13,625 nt of DNA from a virus (Duplodnaviria > Heunggongvirae > Uroviricota > Caudoviricetes), in the IMG/VR virus record IMGVR_UViG_2681813234_000008, positions 1 through 13,625 of that record; one strand, given 5' to 3'. The translations under genes and the position numbers were made by a program. Positions 1-13,625 of this stretch are shown here, piece after piece (position 1 is the stretch's first letter; each line of letters opens with the position of its first letter). The notes below the pieces were generated by a model. It saw only the letters and a list, made by a program, of their open reading frames with translations, did no database searches and had not been told where the DNA came from.

Positions 1-74
1 TCCGTAACGCCTCTGCCACGCGCGTAACGTGACAGGGATTAAAGGTAAACCAATTGATTTTGCAAGTTTTTATT

Positions 75-1361
75 TTACCCCGCTTTCTTATGGGGCATGC
101 ATGGGACACTTTCAGATAGTCTTCTGTTAAGAAGTTCTATCTGTTCGTGATTGTTGTCTTTCATCCATGCTCCGTAAACATTGAATACCATTTGTGCGTT
201 TGTGTGGCCCATCTGGCTTGCGATAAAACTAGGATTAGCTCCTGCGGCAAGTGACCAGCATGCATAGGTATGCCTGGATTGATACGATTTTCTGTGTCTC
301 AGACCTGCGCGTTTTAAGATACTTGTCCATGACTCCCTGATGGAGTCAACCTTATAGTGCGGTCCGGAAAACTGCCGCTGTTTTATTACCTGAGGACTAA
401 AAACAAAAGTGCATTTATGCACAGTACTTCTCCCATATTCCCTCTGCTTTACCTCTACAGAATGCTGTTTTCCAAGCATGGTCATTTCCGCTTGGCTTTT
501 AAGAGCATCAATAGCTGGTTGAACTAGATGAATCGTTCTTCCGGTACCAGCATCAGTTTTTGGTGGAGTGAATTCGCCTAGTTTTGTATAATTCCGGCGG
601 ATGGTTATAGTCCTCGCTTTAAGGTCTATATCTTCCCAGGCCAGTGATACCAGCTCCCCGTGACGAATACCTGTGTATACAGCGATAATCCACAGGTTTT
701 TTGTTTGTTGATGACGGCAAGCCTCAATAAAACGAATAAATTCGTCACGGGTGAGGGGATCTGGTTCTATCCTGGACTTTTTTAATGGTGTCAGACCGTT
801 AAATGGATTTCCTGATGTATAACCATTATCTGTTGCAAATTGAAACATTCCAGCTATGGTTGTCATATAGTAGTTTACTGTGACCACTGAGCGTCCTTTT
901 ATGGAAGAAATTTTTCCGTTAGAAAGCTTTTGATAACCGGTCAACAGATCTCTCCTTACGAAAAGCAAATCCTCTTTTGTTACAGATGAAACCAGTCTTT
1001 TTTCACCTAACATTGGCAACATGTTTTTAATTACTGACTGGTAACGGTTAAGTGCATTTGCACAAATCTCTATTTTCTTCAGTTCAAGCCATCTTTCCGA
1101 AAGTGCTTTAATGGTTATCTCTCTTTTCCCCAGACCAAAGTGTTTCAGGTTAGGGGACTCAGGGAACTGTGCTGCATAGTCGAAACTCCCCATTCTTATT
1201 GCAAAACAAACGGAAGTGCGGAGGTCACCTGCGATTTTCCGGTTTTTGGCGGTGTCAGGAACACCGAGGTTTTCTCTGACACGTTTGCCGTTATAGTGAA
1301 ACCATATGCGGAGTGATCCGCCATGATTTTCAACGCCTGTTGGGTATGATGTATTACTCAT
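75..1361 (-). CDS. int: Tyrosine recombinase (phage integrase)
   Basis: 428-aa ORF with C-terminal catalytic signature (RHTYA, GHTNAQMVFNVYGAW with putative catalytic Tyr) and an N-terminal arm-type region (GSLRIWFHYNGKRVRE). Strong SD (GGAGG) 5 nt upstream of the ATG at 1361. Confidence 0.85.
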   Translation of the reverse strand: MSNTSYPTGVENHGGSLRIWFHYNGKRVRENLGVPDTAKNRKIAGDLRTSVCFAIRMGSFDYAAQFPESPNLKHFGLGKREITIKALSERWLELKKIEICANALNRYQSVIKNMLPMLGEKRLVSSVTKEDLLFVRRDLLTGYQKLSNGKISSIKGRSVVTVNYYMTTIAGMFQFATDNGYTSGNPFNGLTPLKKSRIEPDPLTRDEFIRFIEACRHQQTKNLWIIAVYTGIRHGELVSLAWEDIDLKARTITIRRNYTKLGEFTPPKTDAGTGRTIHLVQPAIDALKSQAEMTMLGKQHSVEVKQREYGRSTVHKCTFVFSPQVIKQRQFSGPHYKVDSIRESWTSILKRAGLRHRKSYQSRHTYACWSLAAGANPSFIASQMGHTNAQMVFNVYGAWMKDNNHEQIELLNRRLSESVPCMPHKKAG

Positions 1362-1394
1362 TAAACCTCCCAGACGTCCAGGAGCATTAACAGG

Positions 1395-1649
1395 TTAACC
1401 GGAACTTGCATTTTTAACACCTGGTTGTTTCTGATTTTCGATCCAGCGCATAATTTCCTCTATGTTGTATACGCATTCACTGTTGCTCTTCGGAATTCCA
1501 TCGACAGCGTAATGTCGATATTCTTTCCCCTGTAGCCATGATTTTTTCCTGGCTCGCTCAATGGTGCCTGGTTTTAGCCCTGTCGAAGCAATGAGGGTGC
1601 TTTCTGTACACCATTTACTTGGTGTTATTTGATAGATGATTGTCTGCAT
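1395..1649 (-). CDS. xis: Excisionase-like small DNA-binding protein
   Basis: 84-aa basic ORF 33 nt upstream of int on the same strand, with SD GAGGT. Position and size fit Xis/AlpA-type directionality factors; family assignment by eye only. Confidence 0.55.
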   Translation of the reverse strand: MQTIIYQITPSKWCTESTLIASTGLKPGTIERARKKSWLQGKEYRHYAVDGIPKSNSECVYNIEEIMRWIENQKQPGVKNASSG

Positions 1650-1656
1650 GTCAACC

Positions 1657-1803
1657 TCATAAAACTTTCAGCCCACGGCAGTGGCACCACACCTCAAACA
1701 TTCGTTTCACAACTTCACGGCAGTAGAAACCGTCAACATCTCGCGTCAGGTCATAACGATTGCCGTAACGCTGGCGTACCCATAGCTCAAACGCTTTATT
1801 CAT
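1657..1803 (-). CDS. Small hypothetical protein (48 aa), not in the ORF track
   Basis: Manual translation gives MNKAFELWVRQRYGNRYDLTRDVDGFYCREVVKRMFEVWCHCRGLKVL. ATG sits 3 nt after the stop of the upstream gene with an AAGGAAG SD about 6 nt upstream; it fills the gap between the 80-aa gene and xis. Confidence 0.3.
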   Translation of the reverse strand: MNKAFELWVRQRYGNRYDLTRDVDGFYCREVVKRMFEVWCHCRGLKVL

Positions 1804-1806
1804 TCG

Positions 1807-2049
1807 CTACTTCCTTTTCATGGCTCGTAATTTTTTCAGATGAGCTTCCTGCTCTGTTTCTGCCAGAATTTGTCGGTATTCCTGGTGATCGATCCGTTCA
1901 AACGATTCATTAAAATCGTTCATTTTTACCGATTGTGTTCGCCCATCCATTCTTCTGTACAACACGGTGTTATTTATGCAGCGAATAATTTTTACTGGGT
2001 AACCGGCACTGTCGGTATACAGTTGTCCCTGATTAATCAAAGCAAACAT
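1807..2049 (-). CDS. Hypothetical protein (80 aa)
   Basis: Track ORF 1807..2172, trimmed to the internal ATG at 2049, which has an AGGAG SD about 6 nt upstream. No recognisable domain. Confidence 0.5.
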   Translation of the reverse strand: MFALINQGQLYTDSAGYPVKIIRCINNTVLYRRMDGRTQSVKMNDFNESFERIDHQEYRQILAETEQEAHLKKLRAMKRK

Positions 2050-2080
2050 TTTTTCTCCTGCTCTCTGAATAGTGAGAACT

Positions 2081-2452
2081 TCAGAGCCGTATGTTTGTAG
2101 CGGGTTCAATACTGATAATTTCTGCTGAGATAAGCATCCCGGCAAGCCAGAGTTCTCTGGACAGGTCTTCATCCTGACATATCAGTTCGCCAATATTAAT
2201 GGTGGCCATGATATCTGTTTCCCCTGTGCGCTCATCCTCGACTTCTTCATAAGGCAGCGTTGCGTACAGGCTTTCAATAGCGCAACTGATAACATCCAGT
2301 CCGGTCAGATTGCCGCCGACAGTAACTTCGAATGTTTCGCGGTATTCCCATAGTCCGAAAGTTAATCGAACGGTTTGTTTTGCCATGCGTCCGCATGACG
2401 TCAGATTCGGGTCATAGTTCATTATTTGCGGTTGGGTATTATGGGTGTTCAT
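2081..2452 (-). CDS. Hypothetical acidic protein (123 aa)
   Basis: Track ORF with an AAGGGA SD-like sequence upstream, same strand as the neighbouring operon. No recognisable domain. Confidence 0.5.
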   Translation of the reverse strand: MNTHNTQPQIMNYDPNLTSCGRMAKQTVRLTFGLWEYRETFEVTVGGNLTGLDVISCAIESLYATLPYEEVEDERTGETDIMATINIGELICQDEDLSRELWLAGMLISAEIISIEPATNIRL

Positions 2453-2492
2453 CTGCTTTTCCCTTAGCCCGGCGGCCTGCCGGGCATATAAG

Positions 2493-3320
2493 TTATTTAA
2501 CCTGGATAAATGGCGTATTGGCGCCGCTGGTCATGTATTGCGGCAGTGTGCCGTTCCATTTATTGATGGCTTCCAGTTCCATAACTCCAGGGTTCTGGCG
2601 CAGAGCTTCACCGCGTAAACGAATAGCATCGGCTTCGGCCTGGGCTTTTGTGCGAATCGCATCAGCCTGTCCGGCAGCTTCCGCGCGCAGCATGTTGGCT
2701 TCCGCTTCGCGCTGTTTTACTTCCTGCTCGCGTTGCAGGGTTTTCTGGTTTGCCGTGACTTTGGCATTAATGCTGTCGATAACGGTTGGTGGGTACTCCG
2801 GTTTACCTACATATGAGAGGCTCACTACCTGAATACCGATGGGTGTCATTTCTGCCTGAATGTCTTTAAGAGCAGCATCCAGCAGTTCAGACTTGCCGCC
2901 GTCGATAAATTTGTCGGTGGTCATTTTGCTGGCCAGTCGGTTGAGTGCGTCGGCGATCTTCTGGCGCAGGTCGGTGTCGGTAATGTCATCCACGCCTTTG
3001 CGGTAAGTCTGAAACACCGTGGTAACTTTGGATGGATCAACTTTGTAGGCCACGCCAATGTGATAGCCGATGGTTGTACCGTCACTCATCTGGAAACTGA
3101 ACGGTTCATCGTAGGTCTTCATTTGTTTGAAGGTGGGGAAGATATAAACTTCAGTATTCCAGCCAGTCCAGTAGCGACCAACACCGACCACCTCACCGAC
3201 GCCTTTGTCGTCGCCCAGTTTATTTACCTTGATGCCAACATTACCTGGTTCAACGCGATCGCAACCGACAAGGCCAATAGTCGGCAGAACAATGGCTAAA
3301 GCAAAAATAATTTTTTTCAT
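2493..3320 (-). CDS. SPFH/Band-7 (HflK/HflC-like) lipoprotein, predicted inner-membrane anchored
   Basis: N-terminal signal peptide with lipobox LVGC followed by Asp at +2 (inner-membrane retention rule). Core resembles the HflK/HflC pattern (VEPGNVGIKVNKLG ... IGIQVVSLSYVGKPEYPPTV), followed by an Ala/Gln/Glu-rich coiled-coil tail. SD AAGGA; ATGA overlap with the upstream small gene. Confidence 0.7.
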   Translation of the reverse strand: MKKIIFALAIVLPTIGLVGCDRVEPGNVGIKVNKLGDDKGVGEVVGVGRYWTGWNTEVYIFPTFKQMKTYDEPFSFQMSDGTTIGYHIGVAYKVDPSKVTTVFQTYRKGVDDITDTDLRQKIADALNRLASKMTTDKFIDGGKSELLDAALKDIQAEMTPIGIQVVSLSYVGKPEYPPTVIDSINAKVTANQKTLQREQEVKQREAEANMLRAEAAGQADAIRTKAQAEADAIRLRGEALRQNPGVMELEAINKWNGTLPQYMTSGANTPFIQVK

Positions 3321-3505
3321 CTTTTATCCTTAGTGAAAGAAAGACCCTTGTAAATGGCATAAATGCAGGGCGGGGTCAGAAACGCCAGTGCAAAGCCAGA
3401 AATAACTGCTATCGTATCCTTCATGGATATAAGGAACGGAACGAGTAATCCGTAAATGCATGCGATAATTGCCAGTAAAATTACTATTGTGAAATACAGT
3501 CTCAT
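3317..3505 (-). CDS. Small two-helix membrane protein (62 aa), coupled to the SPFH gene
   Basis: Two hydrophobic stretches (YFTIVILLAIIACIYGLLVPFLI and IAVISGFALAFLTPPCIYAIY). Its stop overlaps the SPFH start as ATGA. Weak SD. Confidence 0.55.
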   Translation of the reverse strand: MRLYFTIVILLAIIACIYGLLVPFLISMKDTIAVISGFALAFLTPPCIYAIYKGLSFTKDKR

Positions 3506-3528
3506 TGGTCTGTGGTATCCCGATATTT

Positions 3529-3636
3529 TTAACCGACTGACAGCGCAATAAAGAGAATAATGATTTCAGTTAGTGTCAGTACTGTGGCAAGGATTAAAAT
3601 CAGTTTTACTCTGTTTAATTCACGGTTGCTTTTCAT
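3529..3636 (-). CDS. Putative 35-aa single-helix membrane peptide, not in the ORF track
   Basis: Manual translation gives MKSNRELNRVKLILILATVLTLTEIIILFIALSVG: charged N-terminus then one hydrophobic helix. It lies 46 nt after the 193-aa gene stop and 24 nt before the 62-aa membrane gene. No clear SD. Confidence 0.25.
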   Translation of the reverse strand: MKSNRELNRVKLILILATVLTLTEIIILFIALSVG

Positions 3637-3681
3637 ATAAACGGTTAGTAAAAGATGGAAGAATTATATTCTTCTTAATAT

Positions 3682-4263
3682 TTAATGTGTCACTGGCGCT
3701 TCTGACATACCATGAGTATTCAGGTCGTTAATCATTTCATCCAGAAGGAGTTCAAGCCCTTCGCGCCCCATAGCAGAGAGAATGAAACCATTATCAGGAT
3801 CTGCGATGAGCATTTTTTGATAGAGAAACAGAACTCGCCCGATGCCTTCAGTTTCGCCATATTTTTCAATAAATCCCCATTCGACATGGTTTTGCAGGGC
3901 AATGCGAAGTGGTCCTGGGTATATACTTATGCAACCATGTTTCCCCTTGTAAATAACTGCGCGATCTGTCGTCCCGTTATCGTTAGGGATATCAATAGTG
4001 CCGTTCTTGTCTTCCTCTTCACTGATAAACTTCATCACATACAGCCAGCGCCACTGAGCAACCTTCAGATCGACTGAAAATCTTCCCAGCAATCCGGCAT
4101 CATCAGCTTCGGCAAGACATTGCATGATTCTTAAACCGTGCCAGTATGGATTATCGAATTCGCCATCATTAAGCCGCTGTACGGCCTCAATATAATCAAT
4201 GGTTTTATTACCAATTTTTATGCCATGTGGCGTTACTTCTGGTCGGAACTCTGAATGATTCAT
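3682..4263 (-). CDS. Hypothetical protein (193 aa), distal gene of a coupled pair
   Basis: Track ORF 3682..4338, trimmed to the ATG at 4263 (MNHSEFRPEV...), which overlaps the upstream gene stop as ATGA. Very AT-rich; no recognisable domain. Confidence 0.6.
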   Translation of the reverse strand: MNHSEFRPEVTPHGIKIGNKTIDYIEAVQRLNDGEFDNPYWHGLRIMQCLAEADDAGLLGRFSVDLKVAQWRWLYVMKFISEEEDKNGTIDIPNDNGTTDRAVIYKGKHGCISIYPGPLRIALQNHVEWGFIEKYGETEGIGRVLFLYQKMLIADPDNGFILSAMGREGLELLLDEMINDLNTHGMSEAPVTH

Positions 4264-4448
4264 AATGTTTGCTCCTTTGCTGGTGGAATAATCGTGTAGC
4301 CAGCTCTTTTTGCCATCCACAGAAATGTATCCATGCAACCAACGAATTCATTATCCAACAGATGTTTTGAGTAAATTACTTCACCATTTTCAATAGTTAG
4401 CAACACTCTTACTTTTTTATGTGTTATGTTTTGTTGTTTTTCTTTCAT
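4260..4448 (-). CDS. Hypothetical small protein (62 aa), proximal gene of a coupled pair
   Basis: Track ORF with GGGAGA SD about 8 nt upstream of the ATG; AT-rich codon usage. Stop overlaps the start of the 193-aa gene. Confidence 0.5.
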   Translation of the reverse strand: MKEKQQNITHKKVRVLLTIENGEVIYSKHLLDNEFVGCMDTFLWMAKRAGYTIIPPAKEQTL

Positions 4449-4644
4449 TTATTTATCTCCCATATGCTTTGCGCAAATACAGGTTGGCTATATGAAGATA
4501 AGAATCTCCATGTTGTGCAATGAGGCAGGCAGTTTTATACGATGCCTTATGTTTCAGGAAAGTCATAACATAATCTCCTGCGAATAAAGGTTGCAACAAT
4601 CCCCGGCGATAAAACCGTAATAAACATTCAGGGAATATTTATTG

Positions 4645-5010
4645 TTATTGCGCTAATTCTTTTTCGGCAGCAGATTTTGCATATTCACATGCAAAATTCA
4701 GAATTTCGCTGCCAAGTGTTTTTGTTTCGTGATTACTGGACATATGTAATACCTGTGTTGCATGCAATAAATGATAAACATTTACCGCAAATGAATCAGG
4801 CTCCAGACAAATGCCTTCATAATCATCTTGTTGTGAGGTTGTTTCTGTCATTGCTCCTGAAGTGCATGCGAGCCTGTTTTTGACAATTCTCTTTCCTCTA
4901 ATCACTATATCGGCAACATCTATTGCCTTTACAACCTCCGGGAGAAGGTCCGGGTTTGTATAATCAAAGTCATTAACATGGAGAACAGTTATGTTTTCGA
5001 ACTTTTTCAT
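4645..5010 (-). CDS. Hypothetical protein (121 aa)
   Basis: Track ORF with GAGGAA SD upstream of the ATG at 5010. It lies downstream of an HTH gene on the repressor strand. No recognisable domain. Confidence 0.55.
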   Translation of the reverse strand: MKKFENITVLHVNDFDYTNPDLLPEVVKAIDVADIVIRGKRIVKNRLACTSGAMTETTSQQDDYEGICLEPDSFAVNVYHLLHATQVLHMSSNHETKTLGSEILNFACEYAKSAAEKELAQ

Positions 5011-5138
5011 GGCTTCCTCAGCTGACTTATATGTTCTGCTATATAGCGAGTCTCAGAAGTGTTTTCATATTGAGACTGTTTCCTCAATGATTGATAAAAA
5101 TGTTCGCATGTACCTTGAGGGGCGAAGCGGCGATTATG

Positions 5139-5657
5139 TCACCATTGGTATTGGTTCTTCCGTAGAAGAGCTTCGCGAGATAAGGAGCAAACTTGTTGAG
5201 ATGCGTCATGGTGTTGCTGCTCCTCACTTTTTGGTTGCTCCGGAGGAGTAACCTCACCAGTTAACAGCCACATCGGATCGCAGCCAAGAATATTTGCCAG
5301 TGGGATAAGCATACTGATAGTTGGTTCATACTTTCCGCTCTCCCACTGGATGATAATTTCTTCATCGAGATCGAGCAGCCTGGCGAGTTCGGCGGTTGTT
5401 AAGCCGCAAGCTTCGCGTTGAGTGCGAAGGCGGGAACTAATAGTCACCATAGCAAGGCGACGGCAAGATTTAGTGCGCTCTTGCCTTCTTTGTGAAAAAT
5501 CTTCTTGTGCAAGAGAAGATGCCAGTTCAGCTGAAATTAGAAGTAATGAATATGAAACATCTCGCTCTTTCTCGGTACCTGAAGACAACAAGCAGGCTGC
5601 GTTAAGGGATGCAGAAAGCTTGTTGATGTCATCTATAGCGTCAATAAAATCGATCAT
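5139..5657 (-). CDS. XRE-family helix-turn-helix protein (172 aa) with extra N-terminal region
   Basis: Central HTH_3-like segment (GLTTAELARLLDLDEEIIIQWESGKYEPTISMLIPLANILGCDPMWLLTGE). GGAG lies upstream of the ATG at 5657; the alternative start at M70 (5450) lacks an SD. Confidence 0.6.
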   Translation of the reverse strand: MIDFIDAIDDINKLSASLNAACLLSSGTEKERDVSYSLLLISAELASSLAQEDFSQRRQERTKSCRRLAMVTISSRLRTQREACGLTTAELARLLDLDEEIIIQWESGKYEPTISMLIPLANILGCDPMWLLTGEVTPPEQPKSEEQQHHDASQQVCSLSREALLRKNQYQW

Positions 5658-5697
5658 TTCTCAAAGCTCCAATAATGCGCTGTGAGGCAATGATTCA

Positions 5698-5728
5698 TCA
5701 ATTATAATTGATAGTCAAGTATGATTTA
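5698..5728. promoter_or_regulatory. Operator-like 14-bp perfect palindrome TCAATTATAATTGA (5698-5711) plus adjacent half-site TCAAGTA (5715-5721)
   Basis: Palindrome read directly from the sequence. It sits between the repressor stop and the start of the 172-aa HTH gene and matches the site family in the repressor/cro intergenic region. Confidence 0.45.
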
Positions 5729-6211
5729 GTCTTTTTGATTGAGTTTTTGCGTGATTAGCAAGATGTTTTTTGAGTGTTCTTCCAGAAGATTTTTTGCAAA
5801 ATCCAACACCTTTACCCTCTCTTTTGTGGGTAAATTCGCAAATATTTCAAATAAATAGCTTGTATCCTCAATGATTGTTGGATCTATAGATTCAATAATA
5901 CCTCGTATCAGTTTGTTGCTCATTGAATCAAAAAGAGTTTCTCCATTCTCCCGGGTAAGTGTGTACTTAGGTTTTTCTGTGTTTCCATTTAAAAGCCACT
6001 GTACGTCGCACTGTAAGAGTTCTGATAATTTCAATAGCTTATCGCTAGTTATGCTTGTCTTTCCTTTCTCCCACAAAGATACAGCAGCCATTGATACCCC
6101 CATTGCTTGTGCCAGCTTTAATTGACTTAAACCAAGTTCTTTTCTGCGTGACAGAATCCTGTGCCCCATTGAGAGTGGGGAAGACTGACATGACTTTAGT
6201 TTTGTATCCAT
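5726..6211 (-). CDS. Prophage repressor, XRE-family HTH, no recognisable S24 peptidase domain (CI analog)
   Basis: N-terminal HTH (LGLSQLKLAQAMGVSMAAVSLWEKGKTSITSDKLLKLSELLQCDVQWLLNG). Transcribed divergently from the Cro-like gene. Track ORF trimmed to the ATG at 6211, which has a GAGGG SD. The C-terminal 90 aa show no Ser/Lys autopeptidase motif. Confidence 0.7.
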   Translation of the reverse strand: MDTKLKSCQSSPLSMGHRILSRRKELGLSQLKLAQAMGVSMAAVSLWEKGKTSITSDKLLKLSELLQCDVQWLLNGNTEKPKYTLTRENGETLFDSMSNKLIRGIIESIDPTIIEDTSYLFEIFANLPTKERVKVLDFAKNLLEEHSKNILLITQKLNQKD

Positions 6212-6291
6212 ATTGCCCTCAAGTATACTTGATAGTAAGATTGTGTTGTAATTCCTGTTGCTAAGCTTAATCAATTAATGTTGAGGTCTCA
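6212..6291. promoter_or_regulatory. Divergent immunity promoter/operator region with two 14-bp sites, TCAAGTATACTTGA (6219-6232) and TCAATTAATGTTGA (6271-6284)
   Basis: The first site is a perfect palindrome and the second is a 12/14 match to the 5698 palindrome. Each abuts the SD of the gene on its side. -10-like hexamers (TATACT, TAAGAT) are present, but promoters are not mapped. Confidence 0.5.
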
Positions 6292-6531
6292 ATGATAAAG
6301 ATTAGTGCAATTAAGTTTTATGGTTCGCAAAGGGCGATTGCTCAATCACTGGGGATTAGCGAGCAAGCTGTTTCTCAATGGCCAGAACTCATTCCTAAAG
6401 GTGCAGCTCTGGAGCTTGAGAAACTCACTGATGGCGCTTTGAAGTGCGATCTGAACCTGTACAAGAACCGCTCGCGCAAAAACAAGCGTGAATTGCACCC
6501 AAGCTTAGCGCACACGGGGGAGGAGAAGTGA
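6292..6531 (+). CDS. Cro/YdaS-like small DNA-binding regulator
   Basis: 79-aa ORF with the YdaS/Cro-type motif GSQRAIAQSLGISEQAVSQW ... PKGAALELEKLTDGALKCD. Divergent from the repressor; GAGG SD. Confidence 0.7.
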   Translation: MIKISAIKFYGSQRAIAQSLGISEQAVSQWPELIPKGAALELEKLTDGALKCDLNLYKNRSRKNKRELHPSLAHTGEEK

Positions 6532-6851
6532 TGGGCGTGTACGTTGATCGTAGAGAAATACTTCTTGATTGCGTGCAGATAGACATGCCCTCGGCTTATA
6601 GCTCAGCAGATGCTGAGTGGATTAAGCAGCAGTTACTTAGCCTGACACTCACGGCACGACAAAAAGCCATCCAGCGTTATGGCGTTGTGTATCAGGAGGC
6701 ATTTGAGGCCGAACCCATTTCGTACCGTAAGGAGAACCGGGCAAGGCATGAAGCAAACACAAGGCTTCGCCTGTTTGTGAGAAATCAGGGCAGAGCTTTA
6801 CAGGGGTATGCCGCCGAACCTCCCCTGGCTGGAACGCAATCGCGATCCTGA
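6531..6851 (+). CDS. Hypothetical protein (106 aa) in the CII position, Arg-rich C-terminus
   Basis: ATG overlaps the cro stop (TGATG) with a GGAGGAG SD upstream. No recognisable HTH, so a CII-like role is a positional guess only. Confidence 0.5.
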   Translation: MGVYVDRREILLDCVQIDMPSAYSSADAEWIKQQLLSLTLTARQKAIQRYGVVYQEAFEAEPISYRKENRARHEANTRLRLFVRNQGRALQGYAAEPPLAGTQSRS

Positions 6852-6935
6852 TTGTTTCGGGTTTGAAGGTACCCGAACAGAAGCAGGCTTAAAGGTGCCT
6901 GTTCAGGTTGGCAACCAACTGACCCAATTCCTCAT

Positions 6936-6960
6936 GCGTACTAGGTAAGTAGTACGTTTT
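6936..6960 (+). terminator. Weak intrinsic-terminator-like hairpin
   Basis: Stem CGTACTA / TAGTACG with loop GGTAAG, followed by TTTT. AT-rich stem, so stability is modest. Lies about 85 nt after the 106-aa gene. Confidence 0.3.
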
Positions 6961-6963
6961 TAT

Positions 6964-7017
6964 GGGGAAGAGGGAAAGGGGGGAGGGGGGGGATTGGGTG
7001 CAGGGGTAGGAATAGGG
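6964..7017. repeat. G-rich polypurine tract with runs G4, G3, G6, G8, G3, G4, G3
   Basis: Read directly: GGGGAAGAGGGAAAGGGGGGAGGGGGGGGATTGGGTGCAGGGGTAGGAATAGGG. The first 30 nt are pure purine. It sits inside a 428-bp intergenic region. Confidence 0.9.
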
Positions 7018-7279
7018 ACTTTTCCAACAGGAGAGAGCCATTGGTTAAGTAGATCACTGTCTTAAGGGCGCAATTTAAAAAAACGCCTGTATCAGCAAGA
7101 TAGTACAAGGCGCTCAGGCGCTGAGAAACGAAAAAGGGTTCTTCCTGGAAGAGTGTTTTTCAGGGGAACTGAATCTGAAGGGAGGCTGGCAGCCTTTGGG
7201 GAGGCCACCAGCCATGTGAGGGGGAATCCATGAAAACCACATCACAAAATTATTATCTCATCAGCACTGGAGCAAAACA

Positions 7280-8932
7280 ATGGAGCTGACGATCACGCCG
7301 AATTTTGCACAGGAACGAGCGTTAAACATGTTGCGTCGTGACTGGAAGGCAAATGACACCTTCATGGTGTATTCGCCAACTGGTAGCGGTAAAACCGGTT
7401 TGGCCGCTTTCATCGTTGCAGGGTTTGTCAGCCGTGGTATGCGCGTTCTGTTTTGTGCACCGTACACTATCCTGATTGGTCAGACGGCTAATCGCTTCGT
7501 GGAGTACGGGTTACCGGAGGATGAAATCGGTTATATCTGGGCGGATCACCCGAACTACGATCCGGACCGGAAAATTCAGATTGCCAGCGCCGACACGCTT
7601 ATTCGTCGTGTTTTTCCTGAAAATATTGATCTGCTGATTATCGACGAAGCACACCTGCGTAAAAAACGCATCCTGAAGGATATCGAACGTCTGCGCGGCA
7701 AAGGCGTAAAGGTGATTGGCCTGTCGGGTACTCCGTTTTCCCCGTTCCTGGGCAAATACTATGACCGACTAATTAAACCGACCACCATCGGCGAGTTAAT
7801 CCAGCGTGGCGATCTGAGTAAATACGAATTTTATGCGCCAACAAAGCCGGATCTGAAAGGCGTAAAAACCAAGTCTTCACTTGAGTACGGCAACGATTAT
7901 AACGAAGCTCAACTGGCTGAAATCATGTGCGGCTCTACGCTGGTGGGCGACATCGTACAGAACTGGCTGGAGAATGGCCGGGATCTGCCGACAATCGCGT
8001 TCTGCGTCAACGTAGCCCATGCTAATTTTCTGACAATCCAGTTTAACCAGGCTGGCATTAACGCTGAGGTCATGACCGCCAACACGCCAGTGGATGAGCG
8101 TCAGACCATCATTCACCGCTTTGAAACTGGTGCAACGAAAATCATCGTTAGTGTGGGCGTTCTGGTGGCTGGCTTCGATAGTGACGTTCGTTGCATCATC
8201 TACGCCAGGCCAACAAAAAGTGAAATTCGCTGGCTGCAGGCGATTGGGCGCGGCCTGCGCACAGCGCCGGGTAAAGAATCTTGTCTCATATTCGATCACA
8301 GTGGCACCGTACACCGCCTCGGTTACCCGGATTCTATCGAGTATGACGATCTCCCCGGTAAGTCTGATGGCATGGAGGAAAGTGCGCGCCGTGCAGCTGA
8401 GGAGCGGGCCGAAAAACTCCCCCATGAATGTTCTCAATGCCACTACATGAAACCCGCTGGTGTCTACGTCTGCCCGAAATGCGGGCATAAGCCGTTGGGT
8501 GGTGAGGATGTCGATACCGATACCGGGCGCAAACTTAAAAAGCTGGGTAAAAATCAGCATCTATCGACAAAGGCAGAGAAACAGGCTTGGTGGAGCCAGA
8601 TCAAATTTTATCAGCGCCAGCGCGTATCGCAGGGGAAAAAGCCCGTTAGTGATGGCTGGTGCGCTCACATTTTCCGGGAGAAGTTCGGCGAATGGCCGGA
8701 TAACCTGAGTGATTTCCCGATGGAAATTACCCCGGAGGTAAGCAACTACATCAGATACAAACTCATCAGGTTTGCGAAAGGGCAAAAACGCCCCCCTCAA
8801 CCACAGACAGAATCTCATCATGCAGGCGCATTGCCGCTAGGTTGTGCCGCAATTTACGAGCTCCCTGAGAACTGCCCGACTAAGGCAATTATCAACGCCA
8901 AACAGCAACTTCAGAAAAATGTAGTGGTGTGA
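7280..8932 (+). CDS. Superfamily-2 DEAD/DEAH-type helicase with C-terminal zinc ribbon (replication module)
   Basis: Walker A SPTGSGKTG, motif II LIIDEAH, motif III LSGTP, motif VI QAIGRGLR, and a C-terminal CSQCHYMKPAGVYVCPKCGH. GGAG SD upstream of the ATG. Confidence 0.85.
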   Translation: MELTITPNFAQERALNMLRRDWKANDTFMVYSPTGSGKTGLAAFIVAGFVSRGMRVLFCAPYTILIGQTANRFVEYGLPEDEIGYIWADHPNYDPDRKIQIASADTLIRRVFPENIDLLIIDEAHLRKKRILKDIERLRGKGVKVIGLSGTPFSPFLGKYYDRLIKPTTIGELIQRGDLSKYEFYAPTKPDLKGVKTKSSLEYGNDYNEAQLAEIMCGSTLVGDIVQNWLENGRDLPTIAFCVNVAHANFLTIQFNQAGINAEVMTANTPVDERQTIIHRFETGATKIIVSVGVLVAGFDSDVRCIIYARPTKSEIRWLQAIGRGLRTAPGKESCLIFDHSGTVHRLGYPDSIEYDDLPGKSDGMEESARRAAEERAEKLPHECSQCHYMKPAGVYVCPKCGHKPLGGEDVDTDTGRKLKKLGKNQHLSTKAEKQAWWSQIKFYQRQRVSQGKKPVSDGWCAHIFREKFGEWPDNLSDFPMEITPEVSNYIRYKLIRFAKGQKRPPQPQTESHHAGALPLGCAAIYELPENCPTKAIINAKQQLQKNVVV

Positions 8933-8937
8933 GTTTT

Positions 8938-9906
8938 ATGAAAACAGTAGATGCTGCGAAAGGCCGCTGGCCTGAAATTTTAGAGCATTTTGGTCTGCCA
9001 CCGATAACTGGAAAAAATCACTATAAAGGAGAATGCCCTGTATGCGGTGCGCGCGGAAAGTTGCGAATTGATGACCGTGACGGGCGTGGAACGTGGATTT
9101 GTACTTGCGGCAGCGGTGACGGTATGAAGCTTGTCACCCTGACACAGGGAAAACCATTCAATGAGGTTTGTAGGGAAATAGACCACCTGATCGGTAATGA
9201 TTTTCAGCGTGTAAAAATCCCGGTCAGCAGCAGCGCTACCAGCCTGCGTACAAAGGTTCTGAATAAGTTCGCGAAGCTGCAGCCGTTACGTGGCACTTCT
9301 GGTGCTGCGTATCTCAATGCGCGCGGCATTTTCAGTCTGCCGCTTGAAGCGATCCGTTTCAACGATAAGCAGCGCCATGCCGGGAGGGTGTATCAGTCGC
9401 TTTATTCCCTCGCCACCGATGATAAAGGGGAACTGTGCTATCTGCATCAGACATTACTCGATGGCCCCAAAAAAGCAGATATCGGTGCCAGTGCAAAGCG
9501 CCAAAAATCCCTGCAGGAAGATAACTATCTTGATCACGCCCGTTCAGTAGCGATCCGGATGTTCCCGGTAGCCAGCACACTTGGCATCGCCGAAGGCATC
9601 GAAACGGCTCTGTCAGCGCACCAGATTTACAACGTAAACACCTGGGCAACTATGACGGCTAACTTCATGAAGAAATTTCGTGTTCCGGCTGGCGTTAAGC
9701 ACCTGATTATTTTTGCTGACCGTGACGAAAACAGTGCCACCGGATTGGCAGCGGCCTATGAATGCGCTCATGCCAATCTGCTGGCAAAGAATGACCTGCA
9801 GCGCGTGAGCGTGTACTGGCCCGATCACGATGATTTTAACAACATGCTCATGAACGGCGATCAGGTTCGTGAGCTGGTTTTCTACAAGAAAAAGGCGACT
9901 GCGTAA
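8938..9906 (+). CDS. DNA primase, N-terminal zinc ribbon plus TOPRIM-like domain
   Basis: CPVCGARGKLRIDDRDGRGTWICTCG zinc-binding motif and an acidic TOPRIM-like motif LIIFADRDENSATG. Coupled to the helicase stop; the track start is a GTG at 8929, and the ATG at 8938 is preferred. Confidence 0.65.
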   Translation: MKTVDAAKGRWPEILEHFGLPPITGKNHYKGECPVCGARGKLRIDDRDGRGTWICTCGSGDGMKLVTLTQGKPFNEVCREIDHLIGNDFQRVKIPVSSSATSLRTKVLNKFAKLQPLRGTSGAAYLNARGIFSLPLEAIRFNDKQRHAGRVYQSLYSLATDDKGELCYLHQTLLDGPKKADIGASAKRQKSLQEDNYLDHARSVAIRMFPVASTLGIAEGIETALSAHQIYNVNTWATMTANFMKKFRVPAGVKHLIIFADRDENSATGLAAAYECAHANLLAKNDLQRVSVYWPDHDDFNNMLMNGDQVRELVFYKKKATA

Positions 9907-10766
9907 TGCGTACAGATAACAACGAACATAAAGCACTATTCACCATCCCGACGGCAGCGCATAGCTCCGCCCTGGCAAACATCAAGCCTCTGCCTGAGCA
10001 ACAGAGAATCACCGGGCATAAACAGACCGATGCCTATCTGTGGGTACTGGAGGTCATCCGCCTGAACGAACCGGCACATCTGGACGCTGCAGAAGCAGCG
10101 CTGGAGAAAATTAAAATCTCTCCAAAAGAGGCCGAGGAGCGGTATTCCCGTTATCTGCTGGCGAATGGCTGTGATCCTTTCCAGGCAGCTTTCGGTACTA
10201 TCGGTATGGATAATCCAGCGAGAGCCATTGAAAATGCGCGTAAGAACATCAAGAAAGCTGCTGATGTTCGCGCTACGTTCGGCAGCTATGAGGCTGCGAT
10301 GGAGGACGTAGAGGCCGAGCGAGTGATCAGGTCTTCCCAAAAATTTACTGATGATTACCTGTGGGGCTGGACCGCAGACGAAAAGAGAGACGGAAGCATT
10401 AACGGCAGTCGTATGAATGAAATTGATGATCAGCGTCGCGCATATGTTGATGGCTATCGTGACGTTCTGCCAGAGCCTCATACACTGTCAGATGTTGTTC
10501 GTGAATTTGTTTACTGGGACTGGCTTTACAACGTTCGCCGTACTGCTGGCCAGGAACTCGGCTACGACTTTGGTTATTCCGAACACCATGAGTCTGTATA
10601 CGACCGTGAGCGATACCTGGAAAAATTACTGGCAACCATCAAACCGGTGACACGCGCTGAAGCTGTGGAGGTGTGCCGCTGGTTTCTGGCAAGCGGAAAG
10701 GACGAATACATGGAAGACAACGGGGCGGCAGTCATTCTTAATCTGGTTGGAGAGTGCGAACAATGA
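9906..10766 (+). CDS. Hypothetical protein (286 aa)
   Basis: ATG overlaps the primase stop (TAATG). Codon usage matches the replication module. No recognisable domain. Confidence 0.6.
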   Translation: MRTDNNEHKALFTIPTAAHSSALANIKPLPEQQRITGHKQTDAYLWVLEVIRLNEPAHLDAAEAALEKIKISPKEAEERYSRYLLANGCDPFQAAFGTIGMDNPARAIENARKNIKKAADVRATFGSYEAAMEDVEAERVIRSSQKFTDDYLWGWTADEKRDGSINGSRMNEIDDQRRAYVDGYRDVLPEPHTLSDVVREFVYWDWLYNVRRTAGQELGYDFGYSEHHESVYDRERYLEKLLATIKPVTRAEAVEVCRWFLASGKDEYMEDNGAAVILNLVGECEQ

Positions 10767-10906
10767 GACTTGAGGCATCGCTAAAACATTTCAACTTTCA
10801 GGGGAGCGCACAGGACTCTTCCAATGCAGCAGCCACAGCCGCGCAGATACAGCAACAAACGAACTGACAGCAGTAAGATGGAGCGTTTCTTTTGAACAAC
10901 CAGACA

Positions 10907-11149
10907 ATGACTTTTACCCCTGAACAATTACGCAAACAGGCGCAGGAAATGCTGCGACAGGCGGAACAACTGGAAAAATCAGGCGTAACAAAAGATGCCA
11001 TTCGTCGGGATATGGTACCCGCGCTCAGAGAACTGATGCAGGCAAAACACCGCGCACAAAAAGCGGTGGATGAGCTGGTGGATTGTGTGGCAGAGCTGGA
11101 AACAAAAGTTGGAAAATTTGAAAAATTGGTGCAGGGGGTACTGCGTTGA
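10907..11149 (+). CDS. Hypothetical small coiled-coil protein (80 aa)
   Basis: Track ORF starts at a TTG; trimmed to the first ATG. Charged, helix-prone sequence (EQLRKQAQEMLRQAEQLEK). Its stop overlaps the rusA start. Confidence 0.45.
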   Translation: MTFTPEQLRKQAQEMLRQAEQLEKSGVTKDAIRRDMVPALRELMQAKHRAQKAVDELVDCVAELETKVGKFEKLVQGVLR

Positions 11150-11520
11150 TGCGCTTAGAGTGTGTTTTACCTTACCCACCGACGGTGAACACCTACTGGC
11201 GTCGTCGTGGCAGCACATATTTTGTATCAAAAGCAGGGGAGCGTTATCGCCGGGATGTGGCGCTTATTGTTCGCCAGCAGCGACTGAAATTAAACCTGTC
11301 CGGAAGGCTGGCAATAAAAATTATTGCAGAGCCGCCGGATAAGCGCCGTCGTGACCTGGACAATATTCTGAAAGCACCACTGGATGCGCTGACGCATGCC
11401 GGACTACTTATAGACGACGAGCAGTTTGATGAAATCAATATTGTGCGCGGACTGCCTGTTCCTGGTGGGCGGTTGGGCGTGAAGATTTACGAAATTACAG
11501 GTGATAACGATGGTGCGTGA
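11149..11520 (+). CDS. rusA: Holliday-junction resolvase RusA family
   Basis: Matches the RusA pattern ([40 protein letters not shown]), including the acidic catalytic residues. Typical Nin-region position. Confidence 0.8.
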
Positions 11521-11896
11521 TATTCAGCAGGTTATGGAGCGGTGGGGATCATGGGCTGCGAACAATCACGAAGATGTGTCATGGGCGTCAATCGCTGCTG
11601 GTTTTAAAGGATTAATCCCGCCGAAAGTGAAATCACGCCCTCAGTGTTCTGATGATGATGCAATGATAATTTGTGGCTGTATGGCCCGGTTGAACAAGAA
11701 AAATCAGGATTTGCACGATTTGTTGGTGGATTATTACGTAGGTGGAATGACTTTTATGGGGTTGGCACGAAAGCATGGGTGTTCGGATACCTGTATTGGC
11801 AAGCGCCTGCAGAAAGCGGAAGGGGTTATTGATGGCATGTTGATGATGCTTGATATCCGACTAGAGATGGACAGATACGTAGAACGAATCATGTAG
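11510..11896 (+). CDS. Late-gene antiterminator Q (phage 82/DLP12 QuuD-like family)
   Basis: Motifs [21 protein letters not shown] and Cys cluster [16 protein letters not shown]. Immediately followed by a promoter-plus-terminator unit. Start placed at the ATG at 11510, which has an AGGTGA SD. Confidence 0.7.
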
Positions 11897-11900
11897 GAGC

Positions 11901-11930
11901 TTGACCAGACACATTGTCCGGGGCTATATT
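11901..11930 (+). promoter_or_regulatory. Candidate late promoter pR' (-35 TTGACC, 18-bp spacer, -10 TATATT)
   Basis: Near-consensus sigma-70 hexamers 5 nt after the Q stop, followed by short hairpins and an intrinsic terminator about 75 nt downstream. Confidence 0.45.
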
Positions 11931-11990
11931 CCTCACGCGCCAGCAAAATCTGGCGTCGGGATTGGCGTCCCGGATGAAAAAGGCGACAAC

Positions 11991-12012
11991 AGACGCGCCA
12001 GCGTCTTTTTTG
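11991..12012 (+). terminator. Intrinsic terminator (tR'-like)
   Basis: Stem AGACGC / GCGTCT with loop GCCA, followed by TTTTTT. Confidence 0.5.
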
Positions 12013-12169
12013 TTGTCGTTTGCACTGTCACATCTCAATGGTGGGCTGTGTGGGGGCGGAGCGATCCGCGCCGGTTCCTTTTTCCCGGTTACGCCAACCC
12101 TGCACAGTTCACCACCATACTGATTGGCGTCAGCAGTGGTGATGATTCACATAGAAAAAGGATCATCCT

Positions 12170-12658
12170 ATGGCTATTCAAATCTCAGTTGAAACTCTTT
12201 CCCCGATCACCCATAACCAAATCCCTGTCATTACTACCGAGCTTTTGGCACAACTTTATGGCACCGAAACTAATAACATCAAAGTGAACTATACACGCAA
12301 TGCCGAGCGTTTTGTTTGTGGGAAACACTACTTCAAATTGGAAGGGGCTGAGTTGCGGGAATTTAAGAACAAGGTTACTCAAAGTAACTTAGTTGCACCG
12401 CGTACAAAGCACCTCATCCTCTGGACAGAACGCGGAGCAGCCCGTCACGCCAAAATGCTGGAAACCGATCAGGCGTGGGAAGTGTTCGAAAAACTGGAAG
12501 ACTGTTATTTCAGCCAAAAACAACCACCAGCAGCACAAAACACCCCAACCCAAAATGATGGATGCGCATTACTGATCCACTTCGATAAACACGGTCAGGT
12601 CGACTTCACGGAAAAACTACCCGCCGATGCGATGGTATGCACTCTGGAACGGTTTTAA
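12170..12658 (+). CDS. ORF6N-domain protein (antirepressor-like N-terminal domain family)
   Basis: Pattern LAQLYGTETNNIKVNYTRNAERFVCGKHYFKLEGAELREFKN ... LILWTERGAARHAKMLETDQAW is typical of ORF6N/KilA-N-like phage proteins. AGGA SD 7 nt upstream. Confidence 0.65.
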   Translation: MAIQISVETLSPITHNQIPVITTELLAQLYGTETNNIKVNYTRNAERFVCGKHYFKLEGAELREFKNKVTQSNLVAPRTKHLILWTERGAARHAKMLETDQAWEVFEKLEDCYFSQKQPPAAQNTPTQNDGCALLIHFDKHGQVDFTEKLPADAMVCTLERF

Positions 12659-12734
12659 AAATTTTCCCCGAACGCTTTACGATCGTAAAAAGTTGAATAT
12701 CCTGTTAAGAGTGGTTACTACGCCAAACAGCTTA

Positions 12735-12760
12735 AACCCGCCACTGAGCGGGTTTTTTTA
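12735..12760 (+). terminator. Intrinsic terminator
   Basis: AACCCGC / GCGGGTT stem with short loop, followed by TTTTTTT; lies 77 nt after the ORF6N gene stop. Confidence 0.6.
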
Positions 12761-12881
12761 TGCCTGAAAAACGGTACAGGACGTTAAACGCGCTGGTGGT
12801 TGCGAATACTGGTCTTTCGGCTTGTATTTTTGTAAATCGATATATACTTATCTTGTGACCAGTAATGTCAGGGCAATTGAT

Positions 12882-13625
12882 ATGAATGAAGCTTGTTCTG
12901 TTGTTTTTGTTCATTCCCCGTTTGTTGTGCTCTTTGAAGGAAAAGAGCTCTCTCTGGAAAGTGGTAGTGCACTTCTTGTCAGGGGGGGAGCTGGATCGTT
13001 ATTGCCCTTTTCGGAATGTTTTCGGCGAATAAGTCTCAGTGAATCGACAATTATCCGTTACCTGTTGTGTGGAGACGAAAAACAGGATGTAGTTTTAGTC
13101 CGGCAAATACCACGATATCTTTGCGTGAGTTTTCCCAAGGCAGAATTGATGGGCATCCTGATTGATTATCTTTGTGAGGAAAAGATTCATACGGACAATT
13201 TAGCGGAAATGCTTTCCTTTTCGTGTCTGGCGTTTTTCTCATCAGAGAAAATGTTTTCGTCGTTTCTGACCGCGTGTATTGGCAATATTAGTGACAGGCT
13301 TAGTGCATTGTTTCGTACGGACATTGCAGCAAACTGGACTCTGAGAGATGTGTCTTCGCGGTTATGTATCAGTGAAAGTTTGTTAAAAAAAAGACTGAAA
13401 GAAGAAGGCACCTGTTTCAGTGAGTTGTTGCTTACAGAGAGAATGAGAATGGCAGCAATGCTGTTGAATCAATCTCGTTGCGCCATCAACAGAATCGCTG
13501 CTCAGTGTGGTTATAATTTTACATCTTATTTTATCAGCGTATTCAGGAGTTATTTTGGTGTTACACCGGCAGGTTACAGGATGGCTGCATTCAATGAGAT
13601 GAGTTTAAGTGTTACTCAAGAATAA
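12882..13625 (+). CDS. AraC/XylS-family transcriptional regulator, AppY/YdeO/GadX-like
   Basis: C-terminal AraC HTH (ESLLKKRLKEEGTCFSELLLTERMRMAAMLL ... CGYNFTSYFISVFRSYFGVTPAGY). N-terminus MNEACSVVFV resembles AppY as recalled from memory. Track start is a TTG at 12822; the ATG at 12882 is preferred. AT-rich gene. Confidence 0.8.
   Translation: MNEACSVVFVHSPFVVLFEGKELSLESGSALLVRGGAGSLLPFSECFRRISLSESTIIRYLLCGDEKQDVVLVRQIPRYLCVSFPKAELMGILIDYLCEEKIHTDNLAEMLSFSCLAFFSSEKMFSSFLTACIGNISDRLSALFRTDIAANWTLRDVSSRLCISESLLKKRLKEEGTCFSELLLTERMRMAAMLLNQSRCAINRIAAQCGYNFTSYFISVFRSYFGVTPAGYRMAAFNEMSLSVTQE

Follow-up and report, generated by a model that had tools for sequence, protein, structure and literature searches.

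In phage lambda, the early-left and immunity regions bring together the ea10-ral-sieB-N and rexBA-cI genes with the left and right operators (OL and OR). The composition of lambda DNA varies along the molecule, the central and right part being AT-rich, and the guanine-plus-cytosine (GC) content is 42.4% from ea10 to cI, 52% in the exo/bet island of the left arm and 48.7% from cro to Q. The same map logic, from the attachment (att) site through Q, and the same compositional pattern recur in the DNA analyzed here, a 13,625-nucleotide (nt) stretch from a virus of the Caudoviricetes (positions 1 to 13,625 of the IMG/VR record IMGVR_UViG_2681813234_000008), which we refer to as the window. A first-pass annotation had singled out its positions 1807-6300 as an AT-rich accessory block embedded in a GC-balanced prophage backbone. 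We find instead that this region is very probably the regular leftward early operon and immunity region of a lambdoid prophage whose left arm is of the phiP27 type, with no inserted foreign block.

Several features set the window apart from lambda itself. Its gene content is unrelated, searches against Pfam and PHROG identified no lambda N, cIII, red or rex genes in it, and its repressor has no peptidase S24 self-cleavage domain detectable with Pfam. Further, OL and OR, which by annotated coordinates are ~2.3 kb apart in lambda, are separated by only ~0.5 kb because no genes intervene between the repressor gene and OL. A closer counterpart is the left arm of phage phiP27 (L03-L10), along with its equivalent in Shiga toxin (Stx) 2a phages, which have the same genes, order and GC profile as the window. 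phiP27 differs in its integrase and integration site (on the yecE side), in its immunity region, which has an extra antirepressor module, and in its DnaC/DnaB-type replication genes, as opposed to the DEAD-helicase/primase pair of the window; unlike phiP27 and the Stx2a phages, the window has no stx gene. The Rac prophage (RacR-YdaS-YdaT, IntR/XisR) shares the int/xis type, and the Cro-like protein of the window matches the YdaS family; as for an equivalent of YdaT, the product of orf107 matched no family searched. Rac is the only close analogue in which H-NS has been examined experimentally, and its likeness to the window comes from gene families, no DNA homology having been established. The essentiality of RacR and the toxicity of YdaS/T are not known to extend to the window. 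Finally, the region resembles the H-NS-silenced islands of enterobacteria in that its GC content is ~11 points below that of the rightward operon and the host flanks and its codon usage is unlike that of the host. Unlike those islands, it has no boundaries of its own and would belong to a phage circuit that regulates itself through a repressor dedicated to it.

Extent of the AT-rich domain

The GC content is 43.5% at positions 1-1806, 42.7% at 1807-6300, 50.7% at 6301-12000 and 44.1% at 12001-13625. Recursive entropy/maximum-likelihood segmentation, with 200 Bernoulli nulls per split, placed boundaries at 6321 (log-likelihood ratio 28.2 against a null maximum of 8.5), 3296, 2133 and 12141, thereby dividing the window into segments of 42.9% (1-2133), 51.1% (2134-3296), 39.7% (3297-6321), 50.9% (6322-12141) and 42.9% GC (12142-13625). 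The dip seen in the first-pass annotation is hence significant, but it is misplaced and is not a single block, as the AT-rich domain spans 3297-6321 and the GC-normal segment 2134-3296 lies within the interval that had been drawn. Position 1807 is no compositional boundary because int and xis on its left are equally AT-rich. The right edge at ~6300 is real and falls in the divergent repressor/cro control region, with the GC content climbing to 48-52% from the cro-like gene (6292) onward.

The GC figures given earlier need a comparable adjustment. The 27-35% claimed for 3500-4450 holds for some 60-nt windows (32-37% at 3481-3720 and 27-33% at 4321-4500), but the mean of the interval is 39.9%, and 3721-4320 lies mostly at 38-52%; the helicase gene, quoted at ~53%, has a calculated value of 51.5%. 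Such hand-counting of selected stretches might have conjured up a dip with no real compositional structure behind it. However, the likelihood ratio at 6321 far exceeds its null maximum, third-position GC (GC3) and codon usage concur with it, and in two whole related elements, phiP27 and the UTAK-5 prophage, no 3-kb window has a lower GC content than the homologous one from ~3301, whose value of 0.40 compares with means of 0.495 and 0.511 (standard deviation 0.036-0.039) and so lies ~2.6-2.9 standard deviations under them. A sampling artefact is therefore refuted and retains next to no probability. The full GC calculation, which had been set beforehand as the test liable to overturn the compositional claim, thus yielded a significant difference both by segmentation and at the level of whole elements.

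Expressed as AT content, the domain at 3297-6321 has 60.3%, the rightward operon 49.1% and the host flank 47.5% (52.5% GC), which places the domain clearly above both host and surroundings, as is typical of H-NS-silenced DNA. Four patches within or at its edge reach at least 68% AT (3556-3705, 4321-4515, 5641-5945 and 6221-6330), with 100-bp peaks of 68-76%. They cover intergenic and operator DNA, the gene for the 62-aa protein at 4260-4448 and the 3' portion of the repressor gene, which is the most AT-rich sizeable gene of the domain.

Codon usage was compared by means of Karlin's B against a reference of ~3300 host codons from the flanks. The AT core yielded a B of 0.43 and a GC3 of 0.37, the rightward operon 0.26 and 0.53, and the structural genes, taken from UTAK-5, 0.245 and 0.59; host genes compared with each other gave a mean B of 0.31 and a GC3 of 0.56. 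The proposed codon-usage check accordingly bears out the difference between the AT core and the rightward operon. Equally, the int/xis genes (B 0.47, GC3 0.39) and the ORF6N and AraC genes lying past Q (0.43 and 0.42) are as atypical as the AT core.

Repressor, putative operators and putative leftward promoter

What the AT-rich domain holds is at odds with a purely accessory block, namely the prophage's own cI-like repressor gene, the putative OL and OR sites and the genes that open the early-left operon. The repressor is DicA-like, and its N-terminal domain shares homology with the DNA-binding domains of P22 C2 (E 3e-11) and the 434 repressor. Its gene has an alternative TTG start at 6274, and its counterpart in strain 52F4 is annotated as a 486-nt gene with 97.5% DNA identity. 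Exact matches to TCAA-N6-TTGA number three in the 13.6-kb window, with 0.45 expected and 2 of 200 shuffles reaching three, and all of them sit in the two short gaps flanking the repressor gene. On the OL side there is a perfect palindrome, TCAATTATAATTGA, at 5698-5711, along with a degenerate copy at 5715-5728; on the OR side, the palindromes TCAAGTATACTTGA (6219-6232) and TCAATTAATGTTGA (6271-6284) lie between the repressor and cro genes. A leftward promoter-like site on the minus strand (TTGACT at 5718-5713, a 17-nt spacer and AATCAT at 5695-5690) harbors the palindrome 5698-5711 in its spacer. Thus, as is characteristic of lambdoid phages, a helix-turn-helix (HTH) repressor gene diverges from a cro-like gene with repeated operators between them (OR), and a second, sequence-predicted operator set with a leftward promoter (OL/PL) is found on the other side of the repressor gene. 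The succession of putative OL/PL, repressor and OR has the layout of the classic immunity arrangement, at both operators of which the repressor presumably binds and represses.

In a lysogen, the cI-like repressor would bind TCAA-N6-TTGA at OL and OR and close both early promoters, the leftward and the rightward one, with the repressor gene itself remaining expressed. Such repressor/operator control would render the expression of the block conditional. As to induction, a whole-window search for LexA boxes (CTGT-N8-ACAG, at most one mismatch) gave six matches against 4.3 expected, none of them perfect, and hence no SOS box; an antirepressor is a possible route. Terminator-like sites number 14 as opposed to 6.3 expected, most of them within genes or on the wrong strand.

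The first gene of the leftward operon, whose ATG at 5657 is preceded 9 nt upstream by GGAG, encodes an HTH regulator (5139-5657) that is likewise DicA-like, with a score below the cutoff. Two DicA-like HTH regulators are thus placed directly on either side of OL (5139-6211), one of them being the immunity repressor.

Conservation and mosaic structure

The first-pass annotation had suggested that 1807-6300 was a single accessory cargo acquired from an AT-rich donor and silenced by H-NS, from which its conditional expression would follow. The difference in GC content and codon usage from the rightward operon is real, four patches do reach 68-76% AT, and the preference of H-NS for low-GC foreign DNA is well established (Navarre 2006; Lucchini 2006; both as cited in PMC4720273). 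Against this proposal stand, to begin with, the absence of a boundary at 1807, the GC-normal segment at 2134-3296, and the presence of the prophage's own repressor and operators in the domain, with a repressor gene that would have to be expressed in the lysogen.

The distribution of the genes tells further against it. Positions 1654-5433 are 97.5% identical at the DNA level to the Stx2e phage phiP27, and 89-4622 are ~85% identical to many Stx2a phages. The AT core (3297-5430) has matches in 389 of 5426 complete E. coli genomes (~7%), 166 of them with at least 80% coverage. The same gene string occurs behind two integrase/att types (mlrA or yecE), with several immunity alleles and two types of replication module. 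Homologous prophages with other cargo at this position had been anticipated; every close (Escherichia) relative retrieved keeps the SPFH-to-HTH string, save for one small gene missing in UTAK-5, and in the distant prophages of Citrobacter, other genes occupy the place of the block. The presence/absence polymorphism of an inserted island is thus lacking, with only the DUF5406 gene being swapped, in GF60. The ratio of nonsynonymous to synonymous substitution rates (dN/dS) is 0.01-0.45 in every comparable gene; by these measures the genes of the domain are conserved, syntenic and evidently under purifying selection.

The homology boundaries do not follow the compositional ones, as they would in an island. 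Against the relatives of Stx2a type, identity is 90-99% over 1900-3800 and 60-80% over 3800-4800 and is then lost save for a 94% island at 5300-5400, while relative to LH50-c it is 86-100% over 1700-5430 and is lost thereafter. The immunity segment (5256-6515) has 97.5% identity with the 52F4 prophage, which is not the prophage sharing the segment to its left. The mosaic junctions at ~1700, 3800, 4800-5250 and 5430 contrast with GC boundaries at 2133, 3296 and 6321, and none of the former falls on one of the latter. Given these junctions and the separate sharing partners, the AT-rich domain comprises at least three modules with separate histories, all of them AT-rich, which is hard to reconcile with a single import. 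Moreover, two alleles of the core genes, separated by a synonymous divergence (dS) of 1.0-2.4, both have a low GC3 (0.29/0.25, 0.23/0.25-0.26 and 0.41/0.39-0.42 for the three genes compared), and this stability across a dS above 1 is unlike what would be seen in a recent import drifting toward host composition.

Nor did a donor emerge. The 193-aa protein encoded in the domain (phrog_1515) falls into 58 clusters among 5.8 billion proteins, the named ones being from Escherichia or Citrobacter only, and a scan of the GTDB species representatives with it gave 69 pattern matches of which none was confirmed, so that it named no close relative and no donor lineage. No lineage of matching composition, and no homologue from an AT-rich genus, was found in these searches, which were made with this one gene. 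Acquisition from an AT-rich source thus finds little to sustain it in the face of syntenic genes, purifying selection, stable GC3 and mismatched junctions; with the proposal largely contradicted, we regard it as very improbable.

Composition round the repressor gene in other prophages

In the relatives that segment finely (GF60, 52F4, LH50-c and STEC276), a domain of 40-41% GC begins shortly beyond the SPFH gene and ends on the cro side, irrespective of the repressor allele. A 3-kb window centred on the repressor gene has 42-44% GC in all 12 prophages examined, which are from E. coli and Citrobacter and include lambda; the value is 44.1% here and 43.1% at lambda cI. The Citrobacter prophages show a valley of 36-44% GC at the same position, with unrelated genes in it. 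The AT-rich valley is therefore a positional and architectural property of the DNA round the repressor gene, whatever genes or alleles are found there, and its recurrence round non-homologous repressor alleles and in lambda is a further argument against a one-off acquisition from an AT-rich donor. To judge from these comparisons, it is kept over long divergence rather than fading to host composition.

The valley could be positional because it is selected, either as it recruits H-NS/StpA or as its flexibility or melting aids communication between OL and OR. We consider this quite unlikely; if true, a selected valley would constitute a host-dependent second layer on the lysis-lysogeny switch.

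Origin of the AT richness

In the early-left operon and immunity region that we favor, the AT-rich part at 3297-6321 consists of the cI-like repressor gene, the putative OL/PL and OR, the HTH regulator, small conserved genes and AT-rich gaps, with the GC-normal DUF5406 and SPFH cassette embedded to the left of it and the AT-rich int/xis end lying beyond. The valley appears to have been assembled from at least three modules recombining independently in the phage gene pool. Its AT richness would stem from dense AT-rich regulatory DNA and from small, weakly expressed genes of poor codon adaptation, which probably evolve in a pool of phage genes with a higher AT content than that of the host. Lambdoid coliphages are reported to be generally poor in codon adaptation (PMC4631060).

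Some points weigh against this picture. The independent-base (Bernoulli) null of the segmentation is liberal, and for that reason whole related elements were examined too. The operators are assigned from palindromes and position and the promoter from a sequence match, which agrees with the consensus at 9 of 12 positions. The promoter scan shows no enrichment, with 8 sites as against 11 expected, and only the site overlapping OL was used from it, as supporting evidence. In Citrobacter, the distant homologues of the genes for the 193-aa and 62-aa proteins have a normal GC content (GC3 0.47-0.57); hence the alleles of the E. coli lineage shifted toward AT at an earlier time, which is also a point in favor of an AT-rich donor, and these alleles may long ago have passed through a phage or host pool richer in AT. 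Lastly, the cause may be sought in mutation bias, relaxed codon selection or regulatory density alike.

All the same, the region shows every feature of a lambdoid early-left and immunity region that can be read from sequence, and lacks those of a discrete inserted island. As lambdoid prophages are already known to be compositional mosaics, the finding is an ordinary one: this is a known type of AT-rich prophage control region, and it has little significance beyond correct annotation. Its lesson is that a low-GC stretch of a prophage is not automatically foreign cargo, as here it would mark the phage's own control region and early-left genes. By-products are a corrected compositional map, a putative TCAA-N6-TTGA operator motif with the OL/OR layout for this immunity type, and a valley that is positional across lambdoid prophages and apparently stable over long divergence.

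H-NS

With 60% AT over 3 kb and peaks of 68-76%, binding of H-NS is plausible from composition alone. The high-affinity nucleation motif of H-NS is TCGATAAATT-like. Near-matches to it (at most two mismatches) occur at 1.98/kb in the AT core, 4.3/kb in the GC-normal SPFH segment and 0.86/kb in the rightward operon and thus do not discriminate the segments. Our search of the literature on Stx and lambdoid prophages found no H-NS chromatin immunoprecipitation or transcriptome data for this module, nor any H-NS data for the left arms of Stx phages.

One alternative is a form of co-silencing, in which the DNA is ordinary prophage DNA and H-NS, with StpA/Hha, nucleates on the four mapped AT patches, measurably helping the cI-like repressor to keep int/xis or the leftward operon repressed. 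A pull-down recovered H-NS on the racR-ydaS intergenic DNA of the Rac prophage (PMC11879457), H-NS is reported to affect Rac excision (PMC4632033), and the int/xis genes of the window are of the same IntR/XisR type. However, deletion of hns/hha left promoter activity in the Rac immunity region unchanged (PMC11879457), Rac is the only one of nine K-12 prophages whose excision H-NS was reported to control (PMC4632033), and the motif near-matches are commoner in the GC-normal SPFH segment than in the AT core. We therefore hold co-silencing to be unlikely. The case for H-NS is weakened further because the repressor gene, the most AT-rich sizeable gene of the domain, must be transcribed in the lysogen, and H-NS is not needed for conditional expression because the operator/promoter layout would already account for the leftward operon; silencing by H-NS, which the first-pass annotation had put forward as the explanation, would thus be superfluous. 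H-NS may well occupy the most AT-rich patches, as an auxiliary layer at most, and these four patches offer concrete targets for work on H-NS at lambdoid switches.

Gene order of the window

The gene map (Table 1) is based on a listing of open reading frames (ORFs) together with Pfam and PHROG family searches. Its genes and junction mark the window as the left end of a lambdoid prophage that is integrated beside mlrA (yehV): in GF60 and UTAK-5, the aligned DNA meets the annotated mlrA gene, a prophage integration site, directly ahead of the integrase gene. The order is int, xis, small genes, HTH regulator, OL, repressor, OR, cro, helicase/primase, RusA and Q. As is usual for lambdoid prophages, int and the excisionase gene are at the att-proximal end and are transcribed leftward, and the rightward replication genes are followed by the Q antiterminator. 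On the plus strand, the cro-like gene is followed by orf107, a DEAD-box helicase, a toprim primase, RusA and Phage_antitermQ (Pfam). No database record covers 80% or more of the window, which is, from what its parts resemble, a new mosaic built from known modules. PADLOC defence models run across the block gave only generic HTH matches and hence no known defence system.

Between orf107 and the helicase gene there is a 428-bp gap at 6852-7279 with no convincing gene, in which only short repeats were found. Its counterpart is unannotated in STEC276 and has a NUMOD4 (homing-endonuclease-like) gene in GF60. The gap could accommodate a replication origin.

Table 1. Features at the left end of the prophage, with positions in the window.
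Feature	Positions	Strand	GC	Basis
Host/prophage junction (attL side), adjoining mlrA (yehV)	1..74			GF60 and UTAK-5 alignments
Tyrosine integrase, IntR type	75..1361	-	42.8%	Pfam Arm-DNA-bind_2 and Phage_integrase
Excisionase, DUF1233/XisR type	1395..1649	-	42.4%	Pfam PF06806, E 7e-31; xisR annotation in GF60
Small conserved ORF, 48 aa	1657..1803	-		Annotated in all relatives; dN/dS 0.09-0.16
DUF4222 protein	1807..2049	-		Pfam PF13973, E 2e-16; phrog_285
DUF5406 protein	2081..2452	-	47%	Pfam PF17400; phrog_3409
GC-normal island (DUF5406 and SPFH)	2134..3296		51.1%	Segmentation; GC3 0.53; codon-usage B 0.32 vs host
SPFH/Band-7 lipoprotein	2493..3320	-	50.5%	Pfam Band_7, E 5.5e-31; phrog_200 'lipoprotein'
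AT-rich compositional domain	3297..6321		39.7%	Segmentation
Hydrophobic membrane protein, 62 aa	3317..3505	-		phrog_1130 'membrane protein', E 2.5e-23
Intergenic gap	3506..3681		33%	GC count
phrog_1515 protein, 193 aa (phiP27 L06)	3682..4263	-	44%	phrog_1515, E 2e-91
phrog_340 protein, 62 aa (phiP27 L07)	4260..4448	-	34% (GC3 0.29)	PHROG
Intergenic gap	4449..4644		37.8%	GC count
Small protein, phrog_5451/4587 (phiP27 L08)	4645..4851	-	(GC3 0.23)	PHROG
Candidate opposite-strand ORF, phrog_6104	4991..5251	+		phrog_6104, E 1.6e-49
HTH (XRE/DicA-like) regulator, first leftward-operon gene	5139..5657	-		Pfam HTH_3; phrog_4739, phrog_4836 'CII-like regulator'
Putative OL/PL	5690..5728	-		Palindromes and promoter-like site
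cI-like immunity repressor, 161 aa	5726..6211	-	37%	Pfam HTH_3; P22 C2 and 434 repressor matches
Putative OR	6219..6284			Two palindromes between repressor and cro genes
Cro-like regulator, P22_Cro/YdaS family, opens rightward operon	6292..6531	+		Pfam PF14549, E 1.3e-16; PF15943

Small genes of the leftward operon

The DUF4222 gene, annotated by PGAP in relatives as 243 nt (80 aa), has a reading frame that is open to 2172 here. In place of the DUF5406 gene, GF60 has an ORF6N gene and two others. The N-terminal sequence of the SPFH lipoprotein ends in LVGC, and its similarity to HflC/HflK is weak and below cutoff. The stop of the 62-aa membrane protein gene overlaps the SPFH start; both proteins have 97-100% aa identity in relatives, with a dN/dS of 0.01-0.04 for SPFH. 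This GC-normal cassette (2493-3505, minus strand) is very strongly constrained and near-identical even where the adjoining genes are only 50-69% identical. A membrane, FtsH-related or exclusion role for it is a matter of speculation, and the literature on phage SPFH proteins offered nothing specific to this module.

Just past the SPFH stop, in the 40-nt gap ahead of DUF5406, there is a 7-bp GC-rich hairpin (2467-2485, minus strand; CCCGGC...GCCGGG) that has no U-run and folds with a z of -1.9. A 16-nt inverted repeat (3375-3390/3691-3706), with 94% complementary arms spaced by 300 nt, encloses the AT-rich gap as well as the 5' part of this 62-aa gene and lies near the drop in identity to the relatives of Stx2a type; roughly 0.1 such repeats would be expected by chance per region. 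Folds of the two intergenic gaps, that at 3506-3681 showing a weak hairpin right after the phrog_1515 stop codon and the other lying at 4449-4644, were not significant (z -1.8 and -0.6).

The AlphaFold2 model of the 193-aa protein is a confident one (pLDDT 89, pTM 0.85), and its gene has a dN/dS of 0.14-0.17. The model has no neighbor in PDB or BFVD under E 0.001, nor any below E 0.06, with TM-scores of at most 0.22; sequence searches of the PDB with the 193-aa and SPFH proteins likewise found nothing. The phrog_340 gene has a dN/dS of 0.16-0.18 and a GC3 of 0.25 in its diverged allele. For the next gene (4645-4851), the frame extends to 5010 without a stop (121 aa), PGAP assigns 68 aa to it in relatives, and 66-68 aa make up the conserved core; the diverged allele keeps no more than the C-terminal 66 aa, with a dN/dS of 0.30-0.33.

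Overlapping readings occur at 4852-5251, where a 53-aa N-terminal extension of that gene on the minus strand faces the 86-aa phrog_6104 ORF on the plus strand, the latter also overlapping the 3' end of the HTH gene. At the corresponding place, phiP27 annotates both kinds of reading, including a shorter plus-strand L09 nearby, and relatives have neither in their PGAP annotation. Those relatives that would be informative are almost identical here or else lack homology, leaving too few substitutions for a selection test.

Region downstream of Q

At a permissive threshold, Rfam detected no RNA family within 1807-6300, its matches lying only downstream of Q. Directly past Q, at 11924-12119 on the plus strand, these are isrK (79 bits), C4 antisense RNA (74 bits) and the c4 a1b1 target (52 bits). 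They are followed by a gene with an antirepressor-like ORF6N domain (12170-12658), which is split by IS66 in UTAK-5. The RNA segment looks like an antisense-RNA switch of the P1 c4/Gifsy isrK type over the downstream gene.

This part of the window also has the second AT-rich segment (12142-13625, 42.9% GC). At its far end, 12822-13625 on the plus strand encodes an AraC-family regulator that runs off the end of the window, is nearest to YdeO and GadX, albeit below the equivalog cutoffs, and is 99.7% identical to the UTAK-5 copy. Its position is that of the toxin gene in Stx phages. By way of this regulator, the prophage may control acid-resistance genes of its host.

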